A DNA stretch of 64,000 bases, taken from IMG/VR virus record IMGVR_UViG_3300035542_000215; one strand, written 5' to 3'. A program made the position numbers and the translations under genes. Below, one piece after another: positions 30,119-50,843 of this stretch. This DNA is from a virus. Under the pieces are notes generated by a model, which worked only from the letters and a program-made list of their open reading frames with translations, made no database searches and was not told the DNA's origin. Each line of letters opens with the position of its first letter. The stretch's first letter is position 1.

Positions 30119-30400
30119 GTCAATAACCCCCTCCTAAATGCTAACGCATTTTGAGGAGGGAGCTTGTTACAAGAAAGCTCATATTGACTAGACTAAGCAT
30201 TTAATTGCTACGTTATAATAGCTATCACACCTTCAGATGATACCCTAGTCTGATGCACTGTGTAGGCACTGTAAACAATCCCGTGAGGTAGGGATAGTCA
30301 ACCTAGATTCTGACCTGAAAAGGCAAACTATTATAACATTGTCGAAGGGTAACTACTAGTTAGTATTCTAGAGCAGTGTAAATCGCTGCTGTAAAAATAC
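30119..30400 (+). ncRNA. omegaRNA (HEARO-type) of IscB
   Basis: Structured noncoding region upstream of iscB with typical segments (TTGACTAGACTAAG, CTACGTT, CCTAGTCTG, ACATTGTCGAAGGG); 3' boundary approximate. Confidence 0.8.
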
Positions 30401-30419
30401 AAAAATAAAAAAAGGAGTC

Positions 30420-31718
30420 TTGCTCATGAGAGTATTTGTAAAAAATATGGACAATAAAAACCTAATGCCTTGTAAGCCTAGTAAGGCTCGAAAATTACTC
30501 AAGGCTGATAGGGCGGAAATTGTAAGTTACAAACCTTTTACTATTAAGTTATTGTATAAAACATCTAATTATACTCAAAAAACAACATTAGCTGTAGATA
30601 CTGGTATGAAAAATATTGGAATAGCAGTTACAGTTAATAAAAACAAGGTTGTAGCTAAAGGAGAAATAGAATTAAGACAAGATGTAAAAACCAATATAGA
30701 CAGAAAAAGAACTTACAGAAGGTCAAGAAGAAATAGAAAAACAAGGTATAGACAACCAAGGTTTCAAAACAGAAAAAGAAATAAGGGATGGCTACCACCA
30801 AGCATCCAATCTAGGGTTGAGAGTACATTTTTTTGGATTGAAAAATTTCAAAACTTACTCCCAGATAATACATTAATTGTAGAATTAGGTAAATTTGATC
30901 CACACAAATTAATCAATCCAGAGATTGAAGGAAAAGAATATCAAATAGGACTAACAGCAGGCTATTATGATGTAAGGCATTTTGTTTTTGAAAGAGACAA
31001 TTATACCTGCCAAGTGTGCAAGAAATCAAAAAATAAGATTTTAAATACTCATCATATAGTTTATATTTCAAAAGGTGGTACTAACAGAGCAGATAATTTA
31101 ATAACAGTTTGCACAGATTGCCATACCTCTGAAAATCATAAAAAAGGTAAAATCTTGCATAAGTGGATGCTTGAAGGAAAAAAAGTTAAGAAGTATAAAG
31201 CACCAACTTTTATGAATATTGTACGCAAAAAGTTTTATCAACATTTCAAAAATATAAAAGTAACCTATGGATCAACTACAAAACCAAAACGAAAAGAAAT
31301 AGGTTTGGATAAAACCCATTTTAATGATGCTATTGCAATTGCGGATGTAAATGAAAACTTTGAAGATGAATGTTTTTCAAATTTCAAAATCAAACAATTC
31401 AGAAAAAAGAAAAGGTCTTTACATGAAGCAACTGCTAGAAAAGGACGAAAAACACCTAATAGTAATCAAAATAGAAATTCTAAAAACACCAAAAAGGTTA
31501 GTCATAAAAAATATGGGACATTTTATCTTAACGATAAGGTAAAAGTATTTGAAAAAATTGGGTTTATAAGTGGTTTTACAAGTGGTGGAGCTTACATTAA
31601 GGATATAGAAGGAAAATACTTAACAGTTCCTGATAAAGATTACAAACAAATAAGCTTGAAGCATATAACTTTTATAAACCATAGTAATAATTGGCAATTC
31701 ATCCCCTCCCTAAATTAA
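30420..31718 (+). CDS. iscB: RNA-guided endonuclease IscB
   Basis: PLMP-type N-terminus (NLMPCKPSKARKLL), RuvC-I LAVDTG, Arg-rich bridge helix, RuvC-II IVELGKFD, HNH C..C...HH...N..DNL..VC..CH, RuvC-III THFNDA. Confidence 0.93.
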   Translation: MLMRVFVKNMDNKNLMPCKPSKARKLLKADRAEIVSYKPFTIKLLYKTSNYTQKTTLAVDTGMKNIGIAVTVNKNKVVAKGEIELRQDVKTNIDRKRTYRRSRRNRKTRYRQPRFQNRKRNKGWLPPSIQSRVESTFFWIEKFQNLLPDNTLIVELGKFDPHKLINPEIEGKEYQIGLTAGYYDVRHFVFERDNYTCQVCKKSKNKILNTHHIVYISKGGTNRADNLITVCTDCHTSENHKKGKILHKWMLEGKKVKKYKAPTFMNIVRKKFYQHFKNIKVTYGSTTKPKRKEIGLDKTHFNDAIAIADVNENFEDECFSNFKIKQFRKKKRSLHEATARKGRKTPNSNQNRNSKNTKKVSHKKYGTFYLNDKVKVFEKIGFISGFTSGGAYIKDIEGKYLTVPDKDYKQISLKHITFINHSNNWQFIPSLN

Positions 31719-40630: not shown

Positions 40631-40942
40631 TTATTTTTCTAATATTTCTAGATATTCTTCTATTCTTTCTTTTCTTAACTCTTTTTTCAATTTTCTTATC
40701 TCAAGTATTTTCTCAAGCATTTTTTCGATATTTTGTCCTATTATCATATTCATAACCGGTTCATCTTTATTAGGACCTAATGTTGTAAAAAATACCTGGT
40801 ATGCATTTTTCTTTGTGTATGCTGTTATTACAAGCTCATAATCTTCTTCTAACCTTGTTATCTTATAATTTTCTCTAAGACTATCGCAGTAATTTTCAGC
40901 ATCTTCCCTATCGTCAAATTCAATTAATCCAAGCTCTTTCAT
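40631..40942 (-). CDS. Hypothetical protein, paralog of 41966-42289
   Basis: Shared I.F....A..Y...L...VITA.....YQV.F...G.NIEK.L.KILEIR. Confidence 0.7.
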   Translation of the reverse strand: MKELGLIEFDDREDAENYCDSLRENYKITRLEEDYELVITAYTKKNAYQVFFTTLGPNKDEPVMNMIIGQNIEKMLEKILEIRKLKKELRKERIEEYLEILEK

Positions 40943-41430
40943 TATTTTTCTCCTTTTAAATTTACTCCATATTTTTCAATAGTTTTTATCACTTCTTTAA
41001 ATGAATTGCTCCCTAAATTTCTTATTTGTTTTAATTCATGGGGATATAGTTTTGTGATATCTCCTAATGTTTCTATATCTGCTCTTCTTAAACAATTATA
41101 AGTTCTTGTAGACAATCCTAGTGCTTCTAAGGGATTAGAAAGTACAGAATCAATTGTTTCATAATCTAGTGCTTGTATCACATTGGGGATATCATAGTCA
41201 TACATTTTAGCTTGTTGTAAAAAATATGCTGCTCCTCCCAAACTAGAACTTAAAGTTTCTCCTTTTCCAGTATTTTCTATGCATTTATTAGCCAAATCCC
41301 GATTTATTGCAGCTGATTCTTTGCAATACTTCATAATGTCTGACACTTTAACATAATACTCTTTATATTTTACCATTATTTTCTCCTTTGTTTTGAAAAT
41401 TAACTTGCAAACTTGATATTTGTCCTCCAA
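40942..41430 (-). CDS. Protein with a C-terminal RNA polymerase alpha-CTD-like domain
   Basis: PLEALGLSTRTYNCLRRADIETLGDI...ELKQIRNLGSNSFKEV matches the RpoA CTD HhH pattern; no alpha-NTD. Confidence 0.8.
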   Translation of the reverse strand: MEDKYQVCKLIFKTKEKIMVKYKEYYVKVSDIMKYCKESAAINRDLANKCIENTGKGETLSSSLGGAAYFLQQAKMYDYDIPNVIQALDYETIDSVLSNPLEALGLSTRTYNCLRRADIETLGDITKLYPHELKQIRNLGSNSFKEVIKTIEKYGVNLKGEK

Positions 41431-43156: not shown

Positions 43157-43420
43157 ATGGTTGGAAATACTATGAATCCAAGTAATGCGAGAAAAAAATT
43201 CTATCAACTTTTAAAAGATGTCAATAAAGACCATAAAGAAATTCAAATAATCAGTGAAGTCACTGGCAACAATGCTGTGCTTATTAGTTTAAAAGATTGG
43301 CAATCAATAAAAGAGACTCTATTGCTTGAACAAACAGGAGTACTTGATAAAGTTAGAAAGCGAGCAAAAGATGATAGTGGCTTTACAAATATTGATGAAA
43401 TAGATTGGGATAAAATTTAA
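43157..43420 (+). CDS. yefM: Phd/YefM-family antitoxin
   Basis: NPSNARKKFYQLLKDV...NAVLISLKDWQSIKETL; promoter TTGACG-17-TACAAT containing GTAC repeats. Confidence 0.9.
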   Translation: MVGNTMNPSNARKKFYQLLKDVNKDHKEIQIISEVTGNNAVLISLKDWQSIKETLLLEQTGVLDKVRKRAKDDSGFTNIDEIDWDKI

Positions 43421-43686
43421 TGAATTCCTACGAAGTATTCATTAAAAATTCTGCTAAAAAAGATTTAAGAAAAATAAAACAATCTCATTTAATAGATAAT
43501 TTTAATGAAATTGTTAAAGTATTAAAAGAAGATCCATTTGAACCTACCCAATCTTTTGAAAAACTACAGCCTAAATCAGCTGGATTATATTCAAGAAGGA
43601 TTAACCAGCAGCACCGTGTTGTTTATAAAGTAGATGAAGATGCACGACGTGTCGAAATTTATTCAACATGGACACATTATGAATAA
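43420..43686 (+). CDS. yoeB: Txe/YoeB-family toxin
   Basis: AKKDLRKIK...FEKLQP...YSRRINQQHRVVY...WTHYE. Confidence 0.92.
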   Translation: MNSYEVFIKNSAKKDLRKIKQSHLIDNFNEIVKVLKEDPFEPTQSFEKLQPKSAGLYSRRINQQHRVVYKVDEDARRVEIYSTWTHYE

Positions 43687-44354: not shown

Positions 44355-46358
44355 TTACGCTATCAAATTCAAAAATTCATCTTCTGAAATTATTGAAATA
44401 CCCAGTTTCTTTGCTTTCTTATTTTTAGAAGAATTGCTTTCTCTATCATTGTTTATAAGATAGTCGGTGTTGCCTGATACGCTCTTTGAAACTTTTCCAC
44501 CTAGTTTTTCAATTTTTTCTTGTAGTTGTTTTCTATTTTCAAATTTAAAAACTTTTCCTGTAACTACAAATACTTTTCCTAGGATAGAACTATCTTTAAC
44601 AATTACCTTTTCTTCTTGAACTTCACTGTTTAATCCTAAATCCATCAATGTTTTAATAATCTCTCTATTACTATCTTCTGAAAGAAAATCTATTAAGTTT
44701 TGACTCATCACTTCTCCAAATATTTTTATTTCAAGGAGTTTTTCCTTAAAACTTTCTTCATCTTCAGAAGCTTTTAATATATTTTCCATTGATTTAAACT
44801 CGTTAGCTAAATCTTTAGAAGCACTTCTTCCAATATTTTTAATAGATAGTCCGTAAATAAAGTGTCTTAACTCTCTGTTTTTAGAATATTCTATTCCTTT
44901 TAACATTTTTTCGAACTTTTTTTCTCCAAATCCTTCAAGATTAAGAATCTCTTCTTTTTTATCTTGAATATGATAGATATCAATTATTGAAGTGATAATG
45001 TTCTTATCAAAAAACTCTTCAATTGTTTTTTCTCCAAATCCGTCAATATTCATTGCATCTCTTTTAACAAAATGTTTAATCTTCCCTTCTAACTGCGGTG
45101 TGCAGTTAATACCAGTGCAGTAAAGATTAGAACCTTCAAATTTCGTAACAGAACCACAAATTGGACAGTTTTTAGGTGGTGACTTGATAATTTCACTACC
45201 AACTCTTAAATCCTTCATAGATTTAACTATTTGAGGGATAACATCATTTGCCCTTTCAACTAATACAGTATCTCCTACTCTAATATCTTTACTTTTAACA
45301 TTATCATAGTTATGTAAAGTTGCACGAGATATATTAACTCCATCAATATTAACTGTTTCTAATTCTGCCACTGGTGTTATCTGGCCTGTTTTCCCGACTT
45401 GATCAGTAATATCTACTAATTTAGTTGTCGCATCTAATGATTTAAACTTATAGGCCGTAGCCCATCTTGGGAACTTTGAAGTAGATCCTAATTTCTTTCT
45501 AATTTCTAAATCATCAAATTTTAAAACCATTCCATCAATCATATGATCTAATTTTTCTCTAGTAACATTTTCATATTCATTGATGTAATCACTTATAGCT
45601 TCTACACTAGTAGAACTAAAAGTAATTGTATTAACAACTTCAAAACCTAATATGTTTAAGAAATCAAGTTTTTCTGAATCTGTTGAAAACTCTTTTCCTT
45701 CAGCTAAAATTAAATCAAAAGCAATCGCTTTAAAACCCTTTCCGGCAACCTTACTACTATCAAGCTGTCTAAGGGAACCAGATACAAGGTTTCTAGGATT
45801 AGAATATTTACCATCTACATTTATTTTTTCAAAATCTTTAAAAGGTAAAACTGCTTCTGCTCTTACTTCCATTTTTCCAAAAAATTGTATTTCTTTTGGT
45901 ACAGATTCAAGATGAATGATATTGTGGTACAAATCTTCTCCTACTTCACCATTGCCTCTAGATAAAGCTTCTATTAGTTTTCCATCATTATATTTTAAAA
46001 TAATGGTTATTCCGTCAAGTTTTTCTTGTATCAAGACATCTTTACTGCCTTTTTCAAGAAACTTCAAAGCTTCTTCCATGCTGTTAATTTTTTGTTGAGA
46101 CAGCATAGGCTCTGTATGTTTTACTTTTTTTAGACTATCTACTATAGTAGTAACAATCTTTTGTGTAGGTGAATTTGGATCTTGAAATTCTGGATGTTCT
46201 TTTTCAAGATTAACTAGTCTTGAGTAAATCTCATCATATTTAGAATCTGTAATTACCGGCTTGTTTTCACTGTAAAGTTTGTCGTGTTTAATTACTTCTT
46301 TTCTCAATTTTTCAATTTGCTCTTTGATAATTATGTCCTCTTTTTTTAATCTTTTCAT
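44355..46358 (-). CDS. ligA: NAD-dependent DNA ligase
   Basis: EKLDG adenylation motif, NPRNL, PRWATAYKF, OB fold, C4 zinc finger, HhH repeats and C-terminal BRCT. Confidence 0.97.
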   Translation of the reverse strand: MKRLKKEDIIIKEQIEKLRKEVIKHDKLYSENKPVITDSKYDEIYSRLVNLEKEHPEFQDPNSPTQKIVTTIVDSLKKVKHTEPMLSQQKINSMEEALKFLEKGSKDVLIQEKLDGITIILKYNDGKLIEALSRGNGEVGEDLYHNIIHLESVPKEIQFFGKMEVRAEAVLPFKDFEKINVDGKYSNPRNLVSGSLRQLDSSKVAGKGFKAIAFDLILAEGKEFSTDSEKLDFLNILGFEVVNTITFSSTSVEAISDYINEYENVTREKLDHMIDGMVLKFDDLEIRKKLGSTSKFPRWATAYKFKSLDATTKLVDITDQVGKTGQITPVAELETVNIDGVNISRATLHNYDNVKSKDIRVGDTVLVERANDVIPQIVKSMKDLRVGSEIIKSPPKNCPICGSVTKFEGSNLYCTGINCTPQLEGKIKHFVKRDAMNIDGFGEKTIEEFFDKNIITSIIDIYHIQDKKEEILNLEGFGEKKFEKMLKGIEYSKNRELRHFIYGLSIKNIGRSASKDLANEFKSMENILKASEDEESFKEKLLEIKIFGEVMSQNLIDFLSEDSNREIIKTLMDLGLNSEVQEEKVIVKDSSILGKVFVVTGKVFKFENRKQLQEKIEKLGGKVSKSVSGNTDYLINNDRESNSSKNKKAKKLGISIISEDEFLNLIA

Positions 46359-46397
46359 ATATTTATCTCCTTTATATTTTTTAATACTCCTATTTTT

Positions 46398-46742
46398 TGG
46401 TGGAGCTGGTGGGATTTGAACCCACGTCCAAAAATATTTCCACAGGACTTTCTACGAACATAGTTCTCTTTATTCTTTAACTACATATATCAAAGAAAAC
46501 AAATCTATATGCAGCTATCTCAAGTTCTTTTGTATAGGGTCTGAGAGTCTCTAATACAGTTTTTTCGCAGTTAATGATACTCAATGTTGACAAGCGAAAA
46601 ATATCAACGTGAGCAGTCGTTTTTGAAGCGACAGTTTGTTTTTATACTATGCGTTTAGTTTAGTTTGTTAGTTTTTATGTTGACTAACTCAACAATTCGC
46701 TTATCCTGTTTTTATATCCTCGTCGAAACCATTTTCAACCCC
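46398..46742 (-). ncRNA. ssrA: tmRNA (345 nt) with a one-codon tag ORF
   Basis: 5' GGGGUUG pairs with CAGCUCC-ACCA including the G3-U alanine wobble; GGUUUCGAC near the 5' end; T-arm GUGGG-UUCAAAU-CCCAC; pk1 GUUGA/UCAAC plus GUUAG/CUAAC; UAAAC then GCA UAG at 46652-46647. Confidence 0.92.
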
Positions 46743-46923
46743 AATTTATTTCTTTTAAATCCTCATCTTTTCATAATCATACTCTCCTTTTTTTTATTTA
46801 CACATAAGTGCTCCTTAAACATCTAATCTATTATATGCAAATATTACTTTTTATATTCGTTTTTTGAAAATAAAAAAAACACCCCTTTGAAAAAAATCAA
46901 AAAGGTGTTTAAAAATTTGATTA

Positions 46924-48580
46924 TTAATATAATTTTTTGAAAACTATATAACCTTCGAAATATGAATCTTCTATTACTTCGAATCCTTTTTCTGCATAAA
47001 AACTTAAGTTTTCTTCTTCTACATATATCATTACTCCACCAATATCGTTACTCATAAATGCTGTATCTACAATTGAGTTCAAGTTTTCTACTATAGCTTT
47101 TTTTATTATCCTACCATCATACTCTTCATTTATTTCAATGTCTTCTAAAACATATATGCTTTCCATATCATCAACAAGATCAAAATCTTCATCTATAATA
47201 ATACTAGCTATAACTTCTTTGAACCCGGATTCTGCATCCATTTCAAATAGAAATTTAGTTAAATTGCGAATTAGACATTTAGGTGCAATTTTATAACCCG
47301 TCATACCCCCAATGGTTTCATTTTCTTCACCTTTCATAACATCAATTACAAAATTAAAATCTAAGCTATGATCTGATCTTTGTTCCTCTGGAGTCTCATA
47401 TACTCCATCTTCTTCTCCAAATATCATTATTGGATTATTAGCTACTGGGCTAATTAAAAATCCATCCATTTCTTTTTTTCATATTATTTATCTCCTTTGT
47501 TTTTTTACAGCTTCAAAACTGCTCCTTATTTTGAACTAATTTATTATATACATCTCACTAGATTCATATTCCTACTTTTTATTTTTTGTCGATATACTCA
47601 ATTATTTTATAGAGATATGTAGTTTTCCTTATTTTATAAAAAGCTAATCTTATAATATCTTTTTGTGTTTTCAATCCTATTTTCATATCTATTTCTCTTT
47701 CAGCATTTTCATCTAAGGCTTCTTTTATTACTTCTTTTTCTTTACTATTCCATTTTTCAAGCTTTTTTCCTTCCATTTCGTTTTTCAATAATTGGGATAA
47801 GTTTAAAAATTTTTTTATTGTCATTTTCGACCAATTTTTTTTTAAATGCCATTTTTGATCTAAACAAATCATATATGCCGATAACCATACCAGGGCTGTT
47901 TTTTCAGAATTGTTTTGTGTTTTTTTTAAAAGTTTCATAGTATGCAGCATGCCAGGTTTTATATTTCTACTTAACCCATGACATACACATGCTTCATGAT
48001 ACAATGTTTTTTTTTCTTCGAAAATTAATTCTTTGTATTCTTGTATATATTCTTTTTTCCACCAGTCAAAATCTTTAACATTATAATAAGAGTTTTTGTT
48101 TTCAATTTCAATTGTTTCTATTTCTGTTTTAAAATTTTCTCCAAATTCTTCTTTCCACATTTCATAAATATCTTTCCAATTTAAATTATTTTCTTGCATT
48201 TTTTTCTCCTTTTATTTTTATAATGCTTCTCACAAAGCACTTGTAAATGTCCTTTGTTTCTTAATTTTCCTTTTTCTCCACATATTTCACAGGTTTTTCT
48301 ACTTAAAGCAGCATATTTACCTGTTATTTCTTCAATTTTTTTCATTTAAACAATTTGTGTAGATATTAAGCACTCCGTATTTTTCTTTAACTTGAAAGAT
48401 GTATAAGTCTTTTTTCTCTTTTTTGCTTAACACCTTTTCTATTTCTTTAGCCCAACCATAAATTAATTTAGACCATCCATCTCCACATTCTACAAATAAT
48501 CCATTATTTGCCTTAATAAACCATGGAAAATCTTTTTTTATTTTTTTCTCTATTTTTTTATCCATATCTACCCTCTTCAA
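46924..48580 (-). CDS. Hypothetical genes 46924-47469, 47579-48199 and 48332-48580 (the last frameshifted in a homopolymer)
   Basis: SD-led ORFs; 48332 continues in another frame as ...CEICGEKG...LCEKH. Confidence 0.6.
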
Positions 48581-49195
48581 TATTAAAAAATTTGACTCTG
48601 TTAGTTTCTACTTCTTCTTGATAAAAATTATCTAAAATTTTATTTTGTTTTCCGTTTTTCATCTCCTCATTTTTAAAACAGCATTCACACTAAACATGGT
48701 AAATGTCGTAAACCAAATTAATACAATTACCATACCTCTTAAAAACATTAACTCTATATCAACATTCCCTTTTTTACTGTTAAAATATTTTATATGAACT
48801 CTTCTTCATTATTGAATCCAGTGTTTTCTATAGATCTTCTGTTTGAAAATCTGAAATTCACTTGCCCACATAGCTAACAACTAAGCATCCCGGTTACAAG
48901 TTGCCTGTTTTAAGAGTCTAGTATGAGATAATTGCAATTTTTAATAAACTGTCATCCAAAGAGTTGTCTTAGAAATAAAATCGGCTAAATCTTAATTTAA
49001 GAGCTGTTTTGCCCCTTGAATTGACATCTTTAAATCCATGAATGCATTACCCCTTTACCTAGAAAAACTTCTAAAACTCTTTTAAATATATCAGCTATAA
49101 TTAACTTACATTCATTATACACTCTTATCTCCTTTCTTTTTAGGTTTTTCTATTTTAAACAAACATCTATAATGAACTATTTTTCATTTTATATT

Positions 49196-50460
49196 TTATG
49201 ACCTTATGGTGTTTATGATTTCTACAACTCTAATTTTTAAAAGTATTACTGCCAAAACTTCAAATAGCATTATGTTAAGGGCTGTTATAAGAGCTTTTTT
49301 ATCTTCAAGAATTAATCCTGAAATTATCAAAATCATGCTTATTACTGCTCCAATGAACAATATCCAGTGTATAGTAGCCATGCTTCCTAAACTTTCTATA
49401 TTTTCTAAATTCATAACTATTTTCTCCTTTTTTTTATTATATGCATTTGACTGTTAAATTATTCCAATCAAATAAAAAAAGAAGATCTCTAAGATCTTCT
49501 AATTTTGTTTATATCTTATTTTCTCTTTTTTCATGTTTTTCTACGTAGTATTTAAATATTTTTTTTAAGCTTTTTATTAAATCAGGTAAGTTTTTAGGTT
49601 TATCTTCAAAGCTTTTTTCATCAAAAGTACCTACAAAACCATTGGGACAGTAAGAATAAGCAGTGTTAAACCATGTATTCTTGCCTACGGTTCTAGTTGA
49701 TATGTAAGCAGCATCTTCACCTAACAGTAGAGTAGCGAATATGTTCTTGCTATCAACAAATTTTGATTCGTCCCATTTTTTATCGAAAGCCTTAATTATG
49801 TCTTTGTGAATATGGACTTCCAACTTTAAACCTTCGCATTTCATTTTACCTGATATTAATATTTTTTTACTTTTGTCTAGTCCTTTGATATCTTCCTTGT
49901 CAACTGGTCCTAAAATAAAATTGTCACAAAATTTTATATTGAATTCATCCTCTAAATAAAACTTTCCCTCTTTTTTTCTAACTAAACCTTCCAAATTTGC
50001 AACTTTTTTTACAGACATGAATTTTCCTGTTAGCAATCCTTGAGAAAATTTAAAATAATTCTCTCTTTTTTCTGTTATATTAAACTTGCTGGCTGCATTT
50101 TTGTAGGTAGGAGCACTTTTAATTTTTTGTTCAGAAGCTATTATTTCTTTTAACGCTGCTTTGTAAACGTCTTTATACTCCTTCATGAATCTCTTCCTCT
50201 TCTACAACTGCATATGCATGGACCATACCTTCTTCGTCTAGCTTAATTAACATGTCATTATCCATTTTCTTATATAGTCTGCCTAGAAGTTTTAAAGTAT
50301 TGCTTACAGATGAGTTAATGACTATATCGTCTATGTATTCACCAAAACATAGGTCTTGTTTAATATAATCTTTTTCAATCACTTCTATTGCTGCTTCTAT
50401 CTGTTTAGTTTTTACAATTTCGTCTCCATTTGAATATACTAATATTTTTTCTTTATTCAT
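49196..50460 (-). CDS. Small membrane protein 49196-49414 and hypothetical genes 49509-50186, 50173-50460
   Basis: Downstream of promoters 49436 and 50519. Confidence 0.65.
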
Positions 50461-50843
50461 TTTTTCCTCCTATTTTTTTCATTGAACAAATATTTGCTCT
50501 CCTAATTTTTCATAGTTTATTCTATGCATTTTAGGTTGTTTATATTCCTTAACGACAAAATTTGGCAAATTAGAATTTTTTTTATTTTTTTGGAATATAT
50601 TAATTAAAAAGTGCATATAATAGAACATCACAATAAAGGAGTGTTCTTGCACTGCTAAAAATACAGGAGGAAGATAATGCTAAAAAAAAATAGTTTTAAC
50701 AATTGAGGTACCAGATGAATTTGATCAATATGATGAGGCTGAACTAGATTTAAGAATTTCAGAAACAGTTTCAGAATTTGACTATGAATTAATTAATTCT
50801 GACGAATATATCGAAGTATAAAAATAAAAAAAGGAGATTAGAC

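Follow-up and report, generated by a model that had tools for sequence, protein, structure and literature searches.

tmRNA has two jobs, the release of the ribosome and the labelling of the unfinished protein for degradation. Work with laboratory mutants has established that these two jobs are separable. H. pylori cells survive with the engineered SsrA-STOP molecule, in which tag codons 2-3 are stops, but not with a molecule whose resume codon is itself a stop (PMC2584231). The viability of SsrA-STOP implies that one round of translation suffices for rescue (PMC2584231). It was also observed that the short-tag mutant loses competence and stress tolerance, and that mutants of G19-A20-C21 and of the G-U wobble define the SmpB and AlaRS determinants (PMC2584231). 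In E. coli, the 5 nt upstream of the resume codon set the frame; the A at -4 matters most, a U is conserved at -5, and mutations upstream shift the frame (PMC2481249). The last codons of the tag frame are also known to help recruit RNase R in E. coli (PMC4176180).

Phages are documented carriers of tmRNA genes, and plasmids of second copies (PMC4131195, PMC7162821, PMC9004378). The phage carriers include the mycobacteriophage Bxz1 group, Bacillus phage G, a pelagiphage and the OM43 phage Melnitz (PMC4131195, PMC9004378, PMC7162821). Another mycobacteriophage, DS6A, has a tmRNA that consists of the tRNA-like domain (TLD) only, and strong inhibition of E. coli tmRNA was seen with a DS6A-like molecule, which perhaps titrates SmpB (PMC4131195, PMC11915505). 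A tmRNA database paper of 2025 describes 25 bacterial tmRNAs with two-residue Ala-Ala tags, mainly from Fermentibacterota, along with CDS-less forms in organelles (PMC11915505). Thus, phage and plasmid tmRNAs and two-residue bacterial tags are already known; what is new in the locus described here is a one-codon tag on a mobile element, a finding of moderate novelty.

The locus lies in the IMG/VR virus record IMGVR_UViG_3300035542_000215, and the whole 64,000-nucleotide stretch that was analysed is called the window. No match to the window DNA was found in a phage collection (INPHARED) or a plasmid collection (PLSDB). The source DNA, large and AT-rich (28% G+C), comes from environmental Firmicute-like bacteria, in which it is a plasmid or phage-plasmid. 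The genes for replication and partition encode a Rep_3 initiator, a DnaD-like protein, two ParA and one ParB, and the other plasmid genes include ThyX, a class II RNR, LigA, a SleB-type cell-wall hydrolase and a YopX protein. There are also two toxin-antitoxin pairs of the RelE superfamily, namely RelB/YafQ (1402-1952) and YefM/YoeB (43157-43686). Toxins of the YoeB and YafQ type (RelE family) cut mRNA on the ribosome, and the stalled complexes that follow are substrates of tmRNA. A gene for SmpB is absent from the ~71 kb made up of the window and its extensions. The initial annotation, made from the letters of the window alone, had called the tmRNA element-encoded, and the Rep_3, DnaD-like and ParA/ParB proteins, together with the toxin-antitoxin modules, bear this out.

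Some further genes of this DNA are recorded here in their own right. A free-standing RpoA C-terminal domain protein is encoded at 40942-41430 on the minus strand (PF03118, E 1.5e-18), and a protein of the same kind occurs in a distant plasmid relative (contig L004, 4207-4668). An intact IscB (RRXRR + HNH) with its HEARO/omega RNA (127 bits) lies at 30119-31718 on the plus strand, and a HEARO RNA is also present on the contig of a relative (L005, 9967-10205). Around 1-5 kb past the left end of the window are genes for a ResIII/DEAD helicase and an N6/N4 DNA methyltransferase (L104, 193-4304), which probably form a restriction-modification or defence unit.

The tmRNA gene is read from 46742 to 46398 on the minus strand. 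This stretch matches RF00023 of Rfam over model positions 1-374 of 374, with 138.7 bits (E 3.3e-54) against a gathering score of 47 bits. The chromosomal tmRNA of a Eubacterium MAG, used as the control, reached 141.5 bits in the same search, so the plasmid tmRNA scores like a working gene. ARAGORN and Infernal had been proposed as a check. The full-length RF00023 match supports the gene; ARAGORN called no tmRNA in the window under default settings and, once its thresholds were lowered, returned gene ends identical to those of Rfam (46398, 46742) along with a wrong tag. That tag, AYRFVFFDICS, is an artefact that sits inside pk4. The parts of the gene are listed below.

46398..46742, minus strand: complete one-piece tmRNA gene, 345 nt, with the CCA encoded (Rfam RF00023; ARAGORN with lowered thresholds)
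46722..46742, minus strand: 5' half of the tRNA-like domain, with acceptor GGGGUUG and a D-loop analogue ending in GAC (direct reading)
46667..46694, minus strand: pseudoknot pk1, stems 49-53/61-65 (5 bp) and 55-60/71-76 (6 bp) (Rfam alignment and manual pairing)
46653..46662, minus strand: tandem UAAAC-UAAAC frame-setting motif, whose second copy gives U at -5 and A at -4 of GCA (direct reading)
46647..46652, minus strand: entire tag frame, resume codon GCA and then stop UAG (direct reading)
46616..46632, minus strand: helix 5 hairpin GUCG-CUUCAAAAA-CGAC, RNA 111-127, the usual stop site (Rfam alignment)
46472..46613, minus strand: pseudoknots pk2, pk3 and pk4 (Rfam alignment; second stems located by eye)
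46398..46464, minus strand: 3' strand of helix 2, T-arm GUGGG-UUCAAAU-CCCAC, acceptor CAGCUCC, discriminator A and CCA (direct reading and Rfam)

In the numbering of the RNA, position 1 is the 5' G at 46742. On direct reading, the acceptor stem GGGGUUG/CAGCUCC includes the G3-U339 wobble, and the discriminator A342 and the CCA are encoded. The GAC at RNA 19-21 of the D-loop analogue is the predicted region of SmpB contact, a role taken from the H. pylori mutants (PMC2584231). Both stems of pk1 pair, and so the earlier statement that the tRNA-like domain and pk1 are intact holds, in line with the full-length RF00023 match. In pk2-pk4, both stems are present where they can be traced, for example UUUUUCGC at 142-149 with GCGAAAAA at 174-181. 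The helix 5 hairpin was also flagged by a terminator scan of the opposite strand. Compared with each of eight bacterial tmRNAs, the plasmid tmRNA is 48-51% identical and has 35% G+C, with all helices retained; its final 35 nt are identical in tmRNAs of unrelated bacteria. At such a level of identity to every one of the eight, no donor lineage can be named.

The unusual part is the tag. The two copies of UAAAC occupy RNA 81-85 (46662-46658) and 86-90 (46657-46653), with A-A-A-C between pk1 and the first copy. Directly behind the second copy stands GCA (RNA 91-93, 46652-46650), which is followed by UAG (RNA 94-96, 46649-46647) with no codon in between. Frame 0 therefore reads one alanine and then stops, frame -1 reads R-I-V and then stops, and frame +1 runs for 15 codons to a UGA, passing through helix 5; the codon directly after the first UAAAC is UAA. 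In none of the three frames is there a hydrophobic-Ala-Ala-stop end, and the GCA frame has no stop within the hairpin or loop of helix 5 (CUUCAAAAA). Thus, a canonical tag of roughly 8-35 codons, with a hydrophobic/Ala-Ala degron and a stop in or near helix 5, is absent, and GCA-UAG instead has the form of a minimal tag, in which alanine codon(s) and a stop follow each other in an otherwise standard tmRNA. The frame-0 read-through (..KNKLSL..) resembles the B. cereus-group tag GKQNNLSLAA, a likeness too weak to be used.

In the eight extracted bacterial tmRNAs, UAANU or UAANC stands directly before the resume codon, and the resume positions are 89-93. Judged by the E. coli frame rule (PMC2481249) and these eight controls, UAAAC before a GCA at 91 is the canonical arrangement. 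The rule puts the resume codon at GCA, so that the appended peptide would be Ala-Ala. Direct reading thus confirmed what the initial annotation had seen here, that is, GCA (46652-46650) immediately before UAG, a register after the first UAAAC that opens with UAA, and a downstream hairpin (helix 5, 46632-46616) without an in-frame stop, while its proposal that only Ala-Ala is added gains support from the frame rule (PMC2481249). Its premise that tmRNA tags are always of ~10 residues is, on the other hand, out of date, given the 25 bacterial Ala-Ala tags of two residues (PMC11915505).

The early-stop tmRNA is a real observation and not an artefact. The tmRNA is present in runs from 14 studies, and the tag region is identical in Logan contigs of four independent studies, from aquatic, soil, wastewater and oil-field samples. 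This identity rules out an assembly error and disposes of the earlier concern that the UAG might be a sequencing error. Across 601 nt of these four-study contigs, the sole variant is 46537 G>A (plus strand), which is C206U of the RNA; it lies in pk3 opposite A191 or G192, so that pairing is kept or improved. The U form was seen in three of the four other samples.

It was also considered whether TAG might be recoded in this DNA, and the idea was rejected. RNR ends with TAG at its natural C-terminus, ThyX ends with TAG too, 14 conserved genes of the window contain no in-frame TAG, and neither an ordinary nor a suppressor tRNA gene was found in the window and its ~7 kb of extensions (~71 kb in total). 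LigA, RNR, IscB and other conserved genes are intact under the standard genetic code. Three long read-throughs of TAG were merely the next gene, the TAG being a part of its SD, TAGGAGG. At these junctions (5814/5824, 9261/9274 and 37488/37498), the upstream stop TAG is the start of the SD of the following gene, which continues in the same frame. On this evidence, the UAG of the plasmid tmRNA tag is a true stop.

Relatives of the tmRNA were searched for in several collections. By blastn, no homologue was found among the INPHARED phages and the PLSDB plasmids, and none among 401 genomes from the phylum of the Eubacterium MAG, where nearly all matches were to the 3' tRNA-like end only. The exact 3' 32-nt end does not occur in IMG/VR. 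In GTDB genomes and JGI metagenomes, the same 32-mer hit 23 loci, all of them unrelated bacterial tmRNAs that share only the last 32-36 nt. A relaxed search with the 3' 73 nt gave no homologue either, but only ssrA fragments at the ends of Listeria prophages and chromosomal ssrA loci. The tmRNA matches in PLSDB were rejected as chromosomal ssrA loci filed as plasmids. Three of the PLSDB records (NZ_CP151868.1, NZ_CP140268.1 and NZ_CP093325.1), one of them 5.5 Mb long, carry the chromosomal rnr-smpB-ssrA locus and are probably chromosomes, or pieces of chromosomes, mislabelled as plasmids. In six relatives whose LigA is 63-73% identical, no tmRNA was found near ligA in the 768 nt to 10 kb of upstream DNA. 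IMG/VR was also surveyed with a pattern in which the resume codon is followed at once by a stop. All of the 1 + 55 matches were the ends of full-length tags, and no second early-stop tmRNA was seen among the viral contigs in that survey.

The position of the gene is explained by comparison with a close relative, the metagenome contig L042. Between the window and L042, identity is 92% over the 5' part of ligA and 86% over the gene that lies ahead of the tmRNA; L042 has no tmRNA, even by a permissive Rfam search. In that contig a cassette-type promoter and a leader, followed by an SD and the start codon, lead into ligA, whereas the window has this promoter and leader (46878-46769) ahead of the tmRNA. 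The features of this region are as follows.

46877..46910, minus strand: intrinsic terminator of the upstream gene, the start boundary of the tmRNA-ligA unit
46830..46859, minus strand: predicted cassette-type promoter, GAATA, 16 nt, CATATAAT (alignment with the L042 ligA leader)
46763..46780, minus strand: relic ORF of five codons (M-I-M-K-R-stop) behind a good SD, being the displaced former start of ligA (L042 alignment)
46382..46768, minus strand: ~387-nt insert with the tmRNA; a ~30-nt stretch of the ligA leader (A-run, SD, start) stands on either side
44355..46358, minus strand: NAD-dependent DNA ligase gene ligA, 40 nt downstream of the tmRNA

When L042 was aligned with the window by blastn, its stretch 2333-2362 hit both flanks of the insert, and an exact 11-nt repeat, TATGAAAAGAT, is found at 46775-46765 and again at 46359-46349. 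The leader piece being duplicated on both sides of the tmRNA, the latter lies on an insert of ~387 nt within the ligA leader. A longer flank duplication reaching into the ligA codons, which would date the insertion, was dismissed: tested against random windows, it did not reach significance (p about 0.2). No terminator separates the tmRNA from ligA. The predicted cassette promoter (46830..46859), which belongs to ligA in L042, would drive both the tmRNA and ligA here, and the tmRNA is probably transcribed as the first part of the ligA transcript, from which it would then be cut out.

The promoter-leader unit (46769-46878) is itself a recurrent element, since blastn with the L042 leader places it before many genes on both strands. 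Similar leaders lie near 199, 4746, 12411, 15970, 20361, 22729, 23654, 29482, 32825, 37062 and 42489. The cassette -10, CATATAAT, with GAATA upstream, resembles a promoter of a sporulation sigma factor. Gene order differs between L042 1-2868 and window 45847-50551: in L042, genes of 227 aa and 92 aa stand between a 189-aa gene and ligA, while in the window their homologue is ~3 kb distant. It seems that cassettes are moved around among leaders.

What, then, could such an RNA do? The explanation that we favour, and to which we give an even chance of being right, is that the plasmid tmRNA is a working rescue-only tmRNA that adds Ala-Ala and no degradation tag. It would be co-transcribed with ligA from the cassette promoter and excised by processing of the tRNA type, whereupon the host AlaRS would recognise the G3-U pair and add alanine. 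SmpB and EF-Tu of the host would deliver the charged RNA to a stalled ribosome with an empty A site, and the nascent chain would move onto the alanine of the RNA. The second UAAAC would then set GCA in the A site, one alanine would be added, and RF1 would read the UAG, so that the ribosome is freed. The released protein would end in Ala-Ala only, without the recognition elements of the full tag. ClpX contacts the ssrA tag mainly through its terminal Ala-Ala and free carboxylate, and it is reasonable to suppose that a C-terminal Ala-Ala might still act as a weak ClpXP signal. For the plasmid, the benefit could lie in extra rescue capacity, possibly against non-stop complexes made by its own YoeB- and YafQ-type toxins, or in competition with the host tmRNA.

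Several lines of evidence argue for rescue without tagging. The scaffold is complete and paired despite the divergence of the sequence and its low G+C, the frame signal is canonical with the resume position at 91, and the sole SNP, C206U, keeps or improves the pairing of pk3. The GCA-UAG design matches H. pylori SsrA-STOP, which is known to rescue, and natural two-residue tags exist (PMC11915505). Furthermore, the gene stands behind a promoter with no terminator before ligA, the UAG is identical in four studies, TAG reads as a true stop, and the YefM/YoeB and RelB/YafQ modules are on the same plasmid. Release of ribosomes by this RNA with no degradation tag is thus plausible from its sequence.

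The same data can be read in other ways. A decaying passenger is one of them: a tmRNA gained by illegitimate recombination into the ligA leader, its message broken and its function gone, which persists because all sampled copies belong to one recent clone. The insertion is indeed missing from the close relative L042 and from six more distant ligA neighbourhoods, the sampled copies are nearly identical, no homologue was found, and every phage tmRNA matched by the IMG/VR pattern survey has a full tag. These points weigh against the rescue-only reading as well. A set of nearly identical copies, absent from the relative with a 92% identical ligA, could be a recent and dispensable passenger; the lineage is single and nearly clonal, with no tmRNA homologue found; and an outlier beside full-tag phage tmRNAs is possibly a defect. 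We nevertheless consider a passenger unlikely, as all the structural elements score like those of a working chromosomal tmRNA and the damage is limited to the tag frame. Nor can one nonsense mutation account for the tag, since no frame keeps a canonical tag end; if the ancestor was canonical, this points to long relaxed selection on the tag with the structure kept. The gene, moreover, appears to hold a transcribed position directly before a ligA that has been kept.

Alternatively, the tRNA-like domain might tie up host SmpB, perhaps with AlaRS and EF-Tu, so that plasmid products are tagged and degraded less; the tag frame would then be irrelevant and would have decayed. Such a decoy has a model in the TLD-only tmRNA of DS6A, a similar molecule inhibiting E. 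coli tmRNA (PMC4131195, PMC11915505), and it would suit a plasmid with no SmpB of its own in ~71 kb, a point that also counts against the rescue-only reading, and with the canonical tag end in no frame. A decoy, however, needs the TLD only, yet pk1, the frame motif, a canonical GCA, helix 5 and three more pseudoknots have been kept, and it is just this order, resume codon and then stop, that still rescues (PMC2584231); it is accordingly given a small probability. That the real tag is longer is improbable, and strongly so. It would have to come from frame -1 (Ala-Arg-Ile-Val), from frame +1 (15 residues, UGA) or from read-through of the UAG by a suppressor tRNA encoded elsewhere. Upstream mutations do shift the frame of E. 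coli tmRNA (PMC2481249), an A run at -4 to -2 and a second UAAAC could make the choice of frame less sharp, and the window is a part of the element only. Against this, U at -5, A at -4 and GCA at 91 form the canonical arrangement, and none of the alternative products has the end of a degradation tag; frame +1 and the read-through frame cross helix 5 into pk2. The TAG ends of RNR and ThyX, the 14 genes without an in-frame TAG and the lack of any tRNA in ~71 kb likewise speak against read-through. The tandem motif has one more consequence for the rescue-only tmRNA, which is that it leaves a register that opens with UAA; by the H. pylori result, there would be no rescue in that register.

A fuller proposal can be put forward only tentatively, and we hold it to be doubtful: the plasmid may keep a rescue-only tmRNA, made with ligA, that clears the non-stop ribosomes of toxin or replication stress, spares ClpXP and competes for SmpB. 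The link of the YoeB- and YafQ-type toxins to the tmRNA is speculation. If the proposal is true, a mobile element has split ribosome rescue from protein degradation to its own advantage. The plasmid tmRNA looks like a natural split of the two jobs, placed beside a presumably normal host tmRNA. Should it work, it would offer a simple system for studying what is gained by rescue without tagging, how a second tmRNA competes over SmpB, and how toxin-antitoxin modules that make non-stop complexes are linked in function to rescue RNAs. Tag-poor tmRNAs on mobile elements may also be under-counted, because ARAGORN at its defaults misses the plasmid tmRNA and published phage and plasmid surveys (PMC7162821, PMC9004378) relied on this program. 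By analogy with the recruitment of RNase R in E. coli, a one-codon frame might also weaken the decay of the faulty mRNA.

Compared with the canonical one-piece SsrA, such as that of B. thuringiensis (tag GKQNNLSLAA) or E. coli, the plasmid tmRNA is of the same length class and architecture. It shares the G3-U pair, the CCA, helix 2, pk1, a UA-containing frame signal, a resume position of ~90, helix 5 and pk2-pk4. The differences lie in the tag, of one codon as against ~10, in the loop of helix 5, which is without a stop, and in the location, which is on a plasmid and does not adjoin smpB/rnr. The two-residue-tag tmRNAs of Fermentibacter daniensis and other Fermentibacterota (PMC11915505) similarly have a frame reduced to alanine codon(s); compared by description, theirs has two codons and belongs to bacterial genomes, whereas here it is one codon on a mobile element. 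The engineered H. pylori SsrA-STOP is alike in that the resume codon is followed by a stop, the addition being the charged Ala plus one residue. It was, however, a laboratory replacement of the sole tmRNA, while the plasmid version occurs in nature, probably next to a normal tmRNA of the host. As in the known phage and plasmid cases, the gene is carried by a mobile element; the phage tmRNAs matched in the IMG/VR pattern survey keep full tags, for example ANDNFAPSGFALAA, as against the one codon of the plasmid tmRNA. Nor does the latter belong to the TLD-only class, since its 345 nt include pk1-pk4 and helix 5. Thus, where DS6A keeps the TLD alone, the plasmid tmRNA keeps the whole scaffold and loses only the tag.
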